From NCBI GenBank assembly GCA_951406725.2, contig OX597835.1:7068001-7132000 (forward strand): a DNA stretch of 64,000 nt, read 5' to 3'. Positions 936 to 59,402 of the stretch are shown here, in pieces. The DNA is from Octopus vulgaris. Taxonomy: Eukaryota. The notes beneath the pieces are model-generated. The model did no database searches. It worked only from the letters and a program-made list of their open reading frames with translations, and was not told where the DNA came from. Positions within the stretch are counted from its first letter, which is position 1. Every line of letters begins with the position of its first letter. Both the position numbers and the translations under genes were made by a program.

Positions 936-2640
936 TAACATTGTGTCAAAATTTGAAACCAATTTATTGAAAAAGACGGCACGTAGGCAGCACATTTTGT
1001 GTTCAAATAACGTCGAGGTGACCATTGTTATTCGTCTTTCAGCATTGATAAATCAAAGTACCTGTCATATAATGGTGTCGATCAATATAAAATTATTTGA
1101 CATTGTACCAAATTTGAAGCAATTGATTGAATGAGAAATGCGGCGAGCGGGTGGACTAGTTAGCGAATCAAGCACTATGACTGGCGGCTTTCTTACGGCT
1201 CTTAACACCCCGAGTTCAAATTCCGCTGGGTCAACTTTAACCTTCATCCTTTCGGAAGATGCCAGTTGAGCGCTGGAGGCGATGCAATCGATTTCCTCAC
1301 TCCCCACAAAATTGCTGGCCTCGAACTAAAATTAGAATGCAAGTTATATTTGTGGTCAAATATGTTTACCGAAGGAAGAAATATATTTTGTTAACGTTAT
1401 TTATTTTTTCATAATATTATCTCAACGGGCAGATGGTTGTGATACACAAACACTTAGATATATATATATATATATATATATATATATATATATATATATA
1501 TATATATATATATATATATATATATATATATATATATATATATATATATATATATATATATATGTGTGTGTGTGTGTGTGTGCGTTGCATTCAATCATCC
1601 ATACACACACATATATGTACGTATGTATCAAAATACGATATTGGAATTTTCGTTTTGTTGCTTATTATTTATTCCCCATAATACATGTTTATTTGTAGAA
1701 TATACATATGAGAATCTACTGGAAATTCAACAGAGAATCAATCTTCCAGTTTCATTCGTAATAACTCTACAAGCACCATTTTCCAGTATTTTCCAACTCC
1801 TACACACGCCTCATGCAAAATATATAACATTTACGTATAATTTGATGGTACTGGAATATGCAGATATTCTTCATGAGGATACAACTTCGATAATAACCCT
1901 ATCTACATACTATATATATATATATATATATATATATATATATATATCTCACGTGACATTATATCACATGTACAGCCACGATTTTAATTCAGTATTTATC
2001 TCAGCCGTCCGGCGAACGGGAACGTGAGACTCTGGGTAACAGTCTGTGATAATTTTGCAGCTTTAATAGAAACGTTATTACTCTAGCTTTGGTATTTGAG
2101 CACTATTTTCTCCACCTTGTTTTGCAATTATGTGCACATCTGTATCTTATACCATATATACATACATACATGCATGAATACATAAAAACATACATATATA
2201 CATACACACACACGCACACACACACACACACACACACATATATATATATTTTACTTGCTTTAGTCATTTGATTGCAGATTTGGTGGCTCACCACCTTGAA
2301 GCGATTTTTTAAAGTACTTATTATATCGGTATCCCTTGCCAAACCGCCAGGTTACCGAAACGAAAACAAGACCAGAATCGGTTGTCAAGCAGTGATGAGT
2401 GAACAAACACAGACACACAGACACACACAGAAGTATAAACATGCACAAAAGTCGTGATTCTTCCAGTTTCCGTTTGCTGAAACCACTCAAATTACAATAG
2501 TCGGCATGAGACTATTGTAGAATATACTTGCCCAAGGTGCCACGTAGAATGAATCCAGAAACATGCAGCAGGGAAGTAACCTTCTTATATATATATATAT
2601 ATATATATATATATATATATATATATATATATATATATAT

Positions 2641-3063
2641 ATCCAAGTCATCCAAGACTTGGACCACGGGATATACGTCCCCTGCCCAATTCAAGATCAC
2701 AACATACATGTACACTGCAACATAATTTCTTTTCCTCAACAGGCCCTGCCCTATTTAACATTGTCCTGAGGGAGACCAAAGAGGAAAAGGATCCCATCAA
2801 CTTTAAACAGGGTCTGGATAGATTCCTTCAAAGAATACCAGATAAGCCACCCATAATTGGATACAACTCACCCAACAAGAACTCACTACTTGAACAAAAC
2901 TGGATACAACTCACCCAACAAGAACTCACTACTTGAACAAAACTTGACTTAAACAAAACTTGACTTAAACAGGATTCGAATAATCCTATCAGGTGGTGCT
3001 ATTAACTTAGACATGGCCTGGACCAATCTTTGGTCGAAACATATCTAAGTTTATCTAAGTTTA
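2641..3063 (+). mobile_element. CR1-like LINE 3' end (ORF2 C-terminus plus short-repeat tail)
   Basis: Reads HPRLGPR...HNFFSSTGPALFNIVLRE...FKQGLDRFLQRIPDKP..GY...NSL; ends in (tctaagttta)x2; internal 43-bp tandem duplication at 2858/2901. Confidence 0.7.
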
Positions 3064-3651
3064 TATATATATACATACATATATATATATATATATATAT
3101 ATATATATATATATATATATGCTCCTTTAGAGAGGTATCTATGTAAAAAATGGACCCACGTTTCGGTCTTCCCATTATAACGAAGGAAGCTTATATTACT
3201 GTAATGTTTATATAATCCTCTACAGGATGTATATCCTTCAGTATTTTCACACTCTATCTGCCAAATATGAGCATTAAAACCATTACGTAATTTCCTGCCT
3301 CCAGAAACAGATGTAGGACATAAAATATCACTCCTTCTCCCTTTAGTTTTCGGTATTTTTTGTACTCCATGTAAATTTGTTTTGTGAATTTATAAATATC
3401 TATACTCCTATACATTTTCAGTTTTGTCTATCTGTAAATACATCGCTATATATAATTACATGTCTATATGTATCTACATATGTATACACATGTAGTGTGC
3501 ATGCGTGTGTGAGAGAGAGATAGATAGATAGATAGATAGAGAGAGAGAGACTGAAAGAGAGAGAGAGAGACTGAAAGAGAGAGAGAGACTGAAAGAGAGA
3601 GAGAGACTGAAAGAGAGAGAGATGAGATTATAGAAATCTGAACTGGCTTAC

Positions 3652-57600: not shown

Positions 57601-58898
57601 AAACTGCAACTAAAGAATTGCGGTTCTTCTTTTGTTTCATTCGACCGCCTGAAAATTCCGCAGAGTTTTGCAAAGTTCTGATTATGTTAATAATAGATGC
57701 ACCAGATTTGAAGAGAAAATTGAATCAAGTTGCAGTGAACTCGATCGAAGACATTCGTATTCGTTTAGAAGTTTTTATCAATTCCGAAAGTTGTCGATGT
57801 CTATAACAAAGATTTATTAGTCCACACAAAAATACGCACGCGCGCACACACACACTCATAAATATACATATATACACACAAATGCACACACGCATGCATA
57901 ATTACAAACATACATACGTACATACATACATTCATATATATATATATATATATATATACATATATGCATATATGTATATCTATGCATATATACATGTATA
58001 TGTATATATATGTATTTATATATATATGTATATATATGTATTTATGTATATGTATATATAAATATATATATATATATATATATATATATATATATGCATA
58101 TATGTATATCTATGCATATATATATGTGTGTTTATGTATATGTATATATATAAATATATATATATATGCATATATACACACATATATATTAACATATATA
58201 TGCATGTGTATTTGAGCATATTGATGAAAAATTATGTGGAGCAATCTTTTATAATACCTGATTTTGCGTATTGACATTGATATATATATGTGTGTGTGTG
58301 TGTTTGCGTGCGTGTGTATGTGTGTGTGTGTGCGTACCTCAATGTATGGAAAGAGAGAGAGAGAGAAACTTTAACGACGTAGGTGTAGGTACGCACAACG
58401 AAACTAATTCCTCAATCATTAGTCAAGTAAGAATGGTTTTTATATATACATATATGTGTAGAATATTTGTCATGTTCACAGAAGTTGGGGGTTCATTTCC
58501 TGAAGCCAGTCTTTTACTTTTCACTTACAGTGATTTTCCAATCCATATTCTAGACGCTATCATCGTGTCTTTTTATAAATGAATAAATCACCTCAATTTT
58601 CTCTATATTGTTTTAAAGTAAGCATATTACAATTTAAACGGGTAAAAAAATAAGCTTTCTAAATATGGACTGTATTACGCAAATTCTTAATATTGATTTG
58701 AAATTTTGGCACAAAGTCCGCAACTTTGTGGGAGAGGTACGTTGATTGCATCGACGTCAGGGCTCAACTGGTATTTATTTCATCTATGGTAAAAGGCCGA
58801 AAAGTGAAGTCGAGCCCGGTGGATTTCAACTCAATACGTCAAATCGGACGAAAAACTGCCCAATTTACCTTTACATGTAGTATAGCAAATACAGAAAA

Positions 58899-59402
58899 CG
58901 ATGGTGAAAATCAACAGCGATAAAGCACTCATGTTCCCGTCTATAGATTCGTTATTGTTCACATCTTCTTGAACTTCTACCTGCCAATTTTGCCCTCCTG
59001 ATGAAGGAAGCCGGTATTATAGTAATATATATATGCATCCATCTACTGATGGATATCTATGTATTTTTACACATTCCATCGCCTGATTATGAACATTACA
59101 ACTATACCGGGACTCAAGAAACAGATGTCGAGTTAAAAAAGCTATGTGTGAATGAATATGTGTATAAATATGTGTGTGTTCGTGTGTATACATATATATG
59201 TAATGTTCATAATCAGGAGATGGACTGTGTAAAAATTCATAGATATCCATCAGTAGATGGATGCATATATATATATTACTGTAATACCGGCTTCCTTCAT
59301 CAGGAGGGCAAAATTGGCAGGTAGAAGTTCAAAAAGATGTGAACAATAACGAATCTATAGACTGTAACATGAGTGCTTTATCGCAGTTGATTTTCGTCAT
59401 CG
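58899..59402. repeat. Foldback element with ~202-bp arms carrying a hammerhead-like motif
   Basis: Arms 58899-59100 and 59199-59402; ctc-CTGATGA(58998)...GAAA(59118)-cagat-GTC-gag. Confidence 0.88.

Follow-up and report, generated by a model that had tools for sequence, protein, structure and literature searches.

Results

Hammerhead-like motifs in the window

The stretch of DNA under study, called the window here, comprises 64,000 nucleotides (nt) of the Octopus vulgaris genome (GenBank contig OX597835.1, positions 7,068,001 to 7,132,000; contig C22 of the 2.8-Gb genome). It is microsatellite-rich and has a GC content of 33.6%. The minus strand carries two exons with a match to ANF_receptor (ligand-binding region), and nine of eleven hammerhead-like motifs scattered across the window are antisense to the gene that carries these exons; therefore, most of the motifs are probably intronic and antisense. 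The initial annotation had described the eleven stretches as type I hammerhead ribozymes and had assigned them to several lineages of small, non-coding, self-cleaving retroelements, derived from Penelope-like elements (PLEs) or resembling retrozymes. All eleven were located again at their coordinates. After comparing them with their relatives across the genome, we conclude that the seven families that they define (A to E, G and H) are very probably the mutated, hammerhead-shaped and 5′-truncated pseudo-LTR (long terminal repeat) ends of several Penelope-like retrotransposons, and that the copies in the window likely no longer cut.

Each motif was searched against the genome, the 40 best candidates were scored, and 19 to 30 loci were fetched per family according to their likeness to the window copy. 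Labels such as L136 and L246 denote these genomic loci, and the statistics on insertion anatomy were taken over 169 loci. A first look gave lower bounds on the number of candidates: at least 529 for A, 175 for B, 2146 for C, 115 for D, 314 for E, 3 for motif F, 1658 for G and 2489 for H.

Family-level evidence for the hammerhead fold

As single copies, the motifs do not rise above chance. A strict descriptor recovered none of the 11, and two when one core mismatch was allowed. A tolerant descriptor gave 1, 6 and 30 window matches at zero, one and two core mismatches, compared with 0-1 (n=20), 0-6 (n=20) and 35-40 (n=4) in shuffled sequence. The single-copy counts are thus inside the shuffled range, a result that the initial annotation had itself named as speaking against hammerheads. 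Rfam reported no hammerhead among the best 150 of 535 window matches, all 150 being of microsatellite type, and none in eight short family H loci.

At the family level, however, ten of the eleven motifs hold up. Alignments yielded seven family majorities, each with a clean type I hammerhead shape. Profiles made without the window copies gave 13 window matches over ten of the eleven motifs (E values of 2e-5 to 2e-43), no match in any of five block-shuffled windows and four matches in 200 kb of random genomic DNA. Building consensuses and checking their stems, as had been proposed, showed pairing at 60 of 61 positions (21/21 in stem I, 20/21 in stem II and 19/19 in stem III), with two to three pair types per position, so that the base pairs differ between families. 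Only 1, 2 and 54 of 5040 permutations of the families reached the observed pairing in stems I, II and III, respectively, although this test leans in favour of hammerheads because families were picked when their window copy looked like one. Independent of how the families were picked is the restoration of the core: the ten assigned window copies depart from the textbook core at 12 places, of which nine have the textbook letter in the family majority and the other three are family-level variants.

The textbook core (C3 U4 G5 A6 N7 G8 A9 / G12 A13 A14 A15.1 / U16.1 H17) is present in the majorities of B, C, D and E, for which the originally proposed CUGANGA is correct, but not in those of A and G, which have C4 (CCGANGA), or of H, which has U6 (CUGUNGA). 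Counted by copy, it is found in 1/24 A, 10/29 B, 19/24 C, 8/28 D, 18/19 E, 4/19 G and 0/19 H copies. Standard descriptors with a fixed CUGANGA and a short loop II would thus miss most of these families. Substitution rates were lower at the core than in the flanks in six of the seven families; this comparison was set aside because the copies had been chosen by similarity to the query, which biases it.

The silence of Rfam and the single-copy counts are what one would expect if the motifs were chance matches in AT-rich repeat DNA. We find this hardly credible, since the family majorities restore the core and the stems at positions that match those of PLE hammerheads, and since reversed-pattern controls found nothing where the forward pattern of family H, described below, found 15,954 copies. 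Motif F alone is still doubtful: it has two weak relatives in the genome search, both with a 14-nt palindromic stem III, so that its membership in a family is weak.

Fold and unusual features of the families

Family A combines a CCGACGA core (U4C) with a 3-bp helix II, closed by a GGAA loop, and a near-palindromic 9-nt stem III. Its stem I, for example in L089, consists of 4 bp, a U-rich bulge and 7 bp, and lies opposite the GNRA loop II, an arrangement presumably akin to the A-U contact between loop and bulge in fast hammerheads. Family B has a rod-like 54-nt helix II region with an unpaired A at each side and a palindromic stem III; family G has a CCGAUGA core and a 7-bp helix II; and family H is a minimal hammerhead with CUGUNGA, an extra A, a 4-bp helix II and GAAA-CG-UH. 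C4 occurs in 20/24 A, 13/19 G and 10/29 B copies and is the majority state in A and G.

Several peculiarities noticed in single copies are true properties of families. The helix II region, counted from A9 to G12, spans 54 nt in B, 59 in C, 122 in D and 53 in E, which makes the unusually long stem II inserts real. By contrast, the apparent 440-nt stem II at 50021-50463, in the window copy of family G, reduces to a helix II region of 21 nt whose loop is split by a SINE-like (short interspersed element) insertion of about 385 nt. The recurring extra A before GAAA is likewise a feature of B, D and G; the position holds a purine, which is A in 21/29 B, 22/28 D and 11/19 G copies. The helix II regions fold at z-scores of -1.0 to -5.3 and their closing helices are well supported, while the inner parts of the long ones are weakly structured (-0.4 to -2.7). 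The palindromic stem III is also confirmed, with computed self-duplex energies of -6.4 to -11.3 kcal/mol for A to E; the palindrome of G is identical to that of B and D, and H has a minimal CG. In five of five real copies the constrained hammerhead fold lay 2.6-9.5 kcal/mol above the free monomer fold, and free dimer folding of three copies gave no clean double hammerhead for H.

Coding parents upstream of the hammerheads

Families C, E and H run upstream, on the same strand, into frames for a Penelope-like reverse transcriptase (RT) and GIY-YIG endonuclease, which bears out the suspected Penelope-like origin from several lineages. In L136, an RT-GIY-YIG frame precedes family C by about 0.5 kb, and endonuclease fragments precede it in L065, L066, L067 and L084; family E lies behind RT/GIY-YIG frames in L134 and L121. 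The Pfam GIY-YIG matches in these parents (E values of 0.0006 and 0.01) are below the curated cut-off. In translation, both parents contain a CxCx5C linker and the E frame a DKT motif, the truncation of the C frame in L136 explaining why DKT is seen in E alone. Linker and motif mark the Hydra clade (PMC8557442; here and below, publications are cited for the parts available to us). The parents of C and E show the marks of this clade, including CxxC and CxH flanking E and N, a cysteine-free stretch from GIY to YIG and a (TA)n target, and are Hydra-type.

Family H continues for about 1.9 kb upstream to RT motifs and a GIY-YIG domain with two cysteines between its halves (L246 and L222). The Neptune clade is marked by a CX2-5CxxC linker and a CCHH endonuclease; CxxC, the two cysteines and histidines are visible in L246, where a frameshift breaks the linker region. 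Judged on these motifs, the parent would be Neptune-type, with Nematis as an alternative. For family D, a Hydra-like endonuclease ends just before the stretch common to L049 and L053, and the parent is probably Hydra-type. One endonuclease fragment resembles Hydra-1_Obim. An endonuclease upstream of family H in L166 was dropped as a parent because its flank is not common to other H loci.

Further Hydra-type frames, belonging to other families, adjoin H and C copies (L231:2179-3258 and L136:254-994), so that the PLE families exceed the seven that were traced.

The decayed frame at 16860-18620 had been cited in support of a Penelope connection. It does belong to a Penelope-like element, but a separate and older one: we ruled it out as a common parent, and it is the parent of none of the seven families, since no profile match lies behind it and its own 3′ end differs. 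Behind this frame, window 18687-18693 holds a possible first half-core, CUGAUGA-like in several relatives and followed by a hairpin; no recognisable GAAA or second half-core was found downstream of it.

Anatomy of the insertions

The family copies include both sides of the cut site; their 5′ ends are variable or inverted, and their 3′ ends fall at family-specific points just before (TA)n. The first (TA)3 behind the cut lies at 35-42 nt in 11/25 A loci, 36-46 nt in 14/25 C loci, 66-75 nt in 15/19 G loci and 92-101 nt in 11/20 H loci, compared with a median of 326 nt at 201 random points. The same anatomy and (TA)n preference have been described for PLEs (PMC8557442). An inverted second copy lies upstream in 62 of the 169 loci, and a same-strand copy within 1.5 kb, at irregular spacing, in nine.

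These data bear on the proposal that the motifs are tandem non-LTR retrozymes that make circular RNAs. The type I topology with a weak stem III and the nine loci with a same-strand neighbour fit such elements, which are defined by tandem repeats of 150-450 nt (PMC7229834). However, no head-to-tail array was found in the 169 fetched loci and no hammerhead-bearing tandem array among the 150 of 179 window tandem-repeat rows listed; the neighbours are irregularly spaced, and the inverted twins sit on opposite strands, where no dimer can form in cis. We consider this explanation very improbable. Upstream RT and endonuclease frames, fixed 3′ ends, inverted stubs and the lack of arrays in these loci mark the motifs as likely truncated pseudo-LTR ends and not as retrozymes. 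With coding frames upstream and no arrays seen, a description as small non-coding self-cleaving elements is not supported for C, E and H, and probably not for D.

For A, B and G alone, such a description may hold. Each of them could be an independent, short non-autonomous element of 85-250 nt, with its own promoter or transcribed by read-through, that Hydra-type proteins mobilise in trans. In 74 loci no upstream extension was seen beyond about 25 nt (A), 80 nt (B) or 200 nt (G), the 5′ ends of A cluster at the base of an extended stem I, and animal retrozymes have been derived from PLE pseudo-LTRs (bioRxiv 10.64898/2026.07.22.740005). Yet C, E and H show similarly short stubs despite their coding parents, and in these families, too, few copies are long (more than 500 nt in 5 of 25 C loci). 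Moreover, A and B are older, at 88-92% to their majority, and neither target duplications nor a promoter were found for A, B or G. We regard separate short elements as unlikely, and truncated PLE ends as the better account of all seven families.

Copies and other features in the window

All ten assigned window copies are damaged (Table 1), and none matches its own family across core and stems. The textbook core is found in two of them (33478 and 58995), both with damaged stems, and the least damaged copy is that of family E. It is thus unlikely that the copies themselves cut RNA. An inverted partial copy at 59198-59322, missing from the original list, was found by a family profile. The insertion at 50052-50435 (minus strand) and another stretch at 6760-6967 are what we take to be SINEs with a tRNA-like head.

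Table 1. Positions of the features discussed (window coordinates, unless a locus label is given)
Feature	Position	Strand	Remarks
Family A stub, 85 nt	1991..2075	+	A6, A14, one stem I pair and one stem III pair lost
Family D stub, old diverged copy	3178..3362	+	first core half broken; family helix II region 122 nt
Second host-gene exon	near 7565-7768	-	ANF_receptor match
Decayed Penelope-like RT and C-terminal GIY-YIG frame	16860..18620	+	many stops and shifts
Family H stub, A6U core	29765..29858	+	also G8A, helix II mismatch, stem I mismatch
Inverted stub of family B tail	31380..31422	-	immediately upstream of family B motif
Family B stub	31416..31553	+	A9G; helix II damaged
Inverted copy of family E tail	33130..33359	-	93.5% to 33781-34011
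Family E pseudo-LTR end (Hydra-type parent)	33476..33598	+	core and stem III intact; 5′ truncation inside stem I, two pairs remain
Family A stub, copy two	35566..35660	+	A9G; damaged helix II
Family C pseudo-LTR end (Hydra-type parent)	36992..37129	-	G12A; 7-nt deletion takes helix II 5′ strand
Family G stub	49976..50478	-	SINE-like insertion at about 50052-50435, 11-nt duplication
Host-gene exon, ANF_receptor ligand-binding region	51058..51291	-	most motifs antisense to this gene
Diverged family C-like 3′ half alone	52951..53045	+	within own inverted repeat 52913-53042
Motif F	54866..54911	+	first half-core intact
Family D stub	58978..59147	+	core and stem I intact; helix II 3′ strand partly deleted, stem III palindrome broken
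Inverted partial family D copy	59198..59322	-	same insertion as 58978..59147; first half-core only
ORF1-like (open reading frame 1) element, about 1.65 kb	L217; L218:7646-9290; L219, L135, L116, L119, L126	- (L217)	

The position of the copies in or beside a gene with ANF_receptor exons invites the idea that they were co-opted as intronic ribozymes that regulate this host receptor gene. Ten insertions in 64 kb, compared with four profile matches in 200 kb of random DNA, could point in this direction; since this window supplied the families, the contrast is larger than it should be. None of the ten assigned copies is undamaged, nine of the eleven motifs are antisense to the gene, and we give the idea next to no weight.

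Two minus-strand sites in the window resemble hammerheads and match none of the seven profiles: 8205, which passed the strict descriptor, and 59543, where a core, a hairpin stem III and a near stem I can be made out by eye. Both are probably due to chance. Tandem repeats with units of 162, 129 and 167 nt lie at 24352-25057, 41297-41589 and 1-355, respectively, and contain no CUGANGA match.

A lineage with U at position 6

U6 was present in all 19 family H copies picked on likeness to the window copy and in all 25 readable copies among 29 picked on the upstream untranslated region (UTR), and no A6 was found among 14 copies picked on the tail alone. Genome-wide, a fixed 26-nt context returned 15,954 exact U6 copies versus 184 A6 copies, and reversed-pattern controls returned none. 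Subfamilies of H differ by about 10-25% in their flanks. Within the motif they vary at N7, where all four bases occur among the 100 U6 rows listed, and at H17, which is A, U or C between subfamilies; the remainder is shared, with G5, G8, A9, GAAA and U16 constant, partly by construction of the search pattern. Variation limited to N7 and H17 suggests continued constraint on the hammerhead.

We considered whether the 184 A6 copies are an ancestral intact subfamily and mostly rejected this, as a tree of 46 short copies shows them scattered over the U6 subfamilies. They make up 1.1% (184/16,138), which matches the 0.97% rate of T-to-A change at other T columns. Most of them look like back-mutations; on the other side, three distant ones (L273, L276 and L277) may be sister lineages, and in no more than 8 of 18 cases does an A6 copy share its N7 with the nearest U6 copy. 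Three A6-type copies spaced about 16.3 kb apart (G000:C18:76866134, 76882493 and 76898762) are likely a segmental tandem duplication.

One explanation, which we consider rather likely, is that the A6U lineage lost catalysis early, and that its fold was kept as a protein binding or folding signal or simply hitchhikes. Single mutants of the CUGA turn of a type III hammerhead have low activity (PMC9901934), A6C is a poor cutter in Mg2+ (PMC7151607), insertion in vitro needs no cleavage (PMC11167929), and Naiads spread without canonical hammerheads (PMC8557442). Against this, the chemically free positions 7 and 17 are the ones that vary across subfamilies, while the others stay, with the above reservation about the pattern. 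A more tentative proposal is that H descends from a Neptune-type parent in which CUGU was fixed long ago, that it radiated into subfamilies with at least 16,000 copies while only N7 and H17 drifted, and that it still cuts, rescued by its own protein, by dimerisation or by Mn2+. If so, no other large natural hammerhead family would be known to lack A6, and CUGANGA-based searches would miss this one; together with the C4 families and helix II arms of 50-120 nt, this would mean that genomic hammerhead censuses miss whole abundant classes. The lineage is a natural test of whether the spread of a PLE depends on cutting by its hammerhead: if the U6 form cleaves, the accepted hammerhead core becomes wider, and if it does not, a highly successful PLE keeps the fold without catalysis.

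Discussion

Overall, we provide a putative mechanism for the origin of these copies. The element protein would nick AT-rich or (TA)n DNA, and reverse transcription would set out from a fixed site, some 35-95 nt behind the hammerhead cut, and usually stop, often with inversion, soon after passing the hammerhead. Because the copies span the cut site, uncut RNA would have been the template. A fixed internal start and an uncut template have been described by Frangieh et al. 2024 (PMC11167929). In the parents, the palindromic stem III may join the two hammerheads of a tandem transcript into a dimer that cuts slowly, perhaps helped by protein, as would follow from the literature (PMC4209133). The stem III self-duplex energies fit such cleavage, although the monomer hammerhead was never the lowest-energy fold in five copies. 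Inverted twins, lying on opposite strands, would not dimerise in cis.

Several observations weigh against this interpretation. The 25 loci of A, 30 of B and 19 of G revealed no coding parent, nor was one seen for motif F, and the parent of D is supported by a single locus. In almost every A copy the 5′ end lies no more than about 25 nt from stem I, and an inverted twin accompanies 18 of 25; a short non-autonomous element would fit this as well. The loci were chosen among the 40 best by likeness to the window copy, so that a young tandem subfamily could be missed; the clade assignments rest on motifs; and for D and E, AT runs within the element itself may account for the (TA)3 distances. Four contig sets (three of them guessed to be RNA) showed patchy presence only, which speaks neither for nor against expression.

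The bulk of the finding is ordinary, namely the fossil ends of Penelope-like elements. The minimal hammerhead ribozymes of Cervera and de la Pena 2014 (PMC4209133) are likewise of type I, with an extra base after A9, G10.1-C11.1 and a palindromic 15.2-16.2, and occur as thousands of dispersed single copies from truncated elements, with opposite-strand pairs 100-700 bp apart. Family H has exactly this shape. In contrast, the legible rows of their Fig. S3 all have A6 and U4 (with U3-A8 variants), whereas H has U6 and A and G have C4; their helix II regions are under about 25 nt, compared with 53-122 nt in B to E; and an extra A before GAAA appears in one of 56 rows. The Hydra PLEs of Craig et al. 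2021 (PMC8557442) share DKT, CxCx5C, (TA)n targets and a self-complementary stem III of 8-10 nt with our families, and stem I of family A is identical to that of Hydra-2_aMil, with stem III nearly so. Helix II of the Hydra PLEs is flanked on either side by an extra base, in most cases U...U or G...C, where we find A...A or A...G, and their loops 2 measure 3-10 nt, with a table maximum of 35 nt in a plant PLE-X, which is shorter than here. Neither U4C nor A6U appears in the available rows of their File S2.

The Poseidon element PAc of Anolis (PMC11167929) resembles our families in its fixed RT starts behind the hammerhead, AT-rich targets and uncut RNA template. However, its hammerhead overlaps the start codon and is protein-assisted in an assay, whereas those described here lie in a long 3′ UTR and are known from sequence alone. 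Non-LTR retrozymes also carry type I hammerheads in animal repeats and are related to PLE pseudo-LTRs (PMC7229834; bioRxiv 10.64898/2026.07.22.740005), but as tandem units of 150-450 nt with circular RNAs, unlike the array-free loci here. As for the core variants, U4C in a viroid and A6C in the phage Bcep176 affect the same positions and keep some activity, A6C preferring Mn2+ (PMC3088659, PMC7151607). Those natural cases are rare singles, compared with a U6 lineage state in at least 15,954 copies and a C4 majority in two families.

The suggestion that these hammerheads are undescribed in cephalopods was too strong, as the octopus element Hydra-1_Obim and its hammerhead already appear in Files S1 and S2 of Craig et al. 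2021, and the same publication also has a palindromic stem III and an additional base ahead of GAAA (PMC8557442). What we did not find in print are the helix II regions of 53-122 nt, the majority U4C in A and G, and the A6U lineage. Literature searches yielded neither A6U nor these families, with Lunse et al. 2017, reportedly on about 150,000 small PLE hammerheads, outside their coverage and the figures of Cervera 2014 legible in part.

One further element touches the 3′ UTR of family E. About 100 nt upstream of the hammerhead, at one site, several loci carry a ~1.65-kb insertion with a single ORF1-like frame that ends in a CCHC zinc knuckle (Pfam E value of 0.0012), followed by AATAAA. In L217 and L218 a duplication of about 19 nt borders the insertion. 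L135 contains copies that have diverged further (56% protein identity), two of them in tandem at that site, and one contig of run X5 has the empty site. One literature listing held no obvious report of it. It looks like a non-autonomous LINE-like (long interspersed element) retrotransposon that targets, or travels in, a Hydra PLE.

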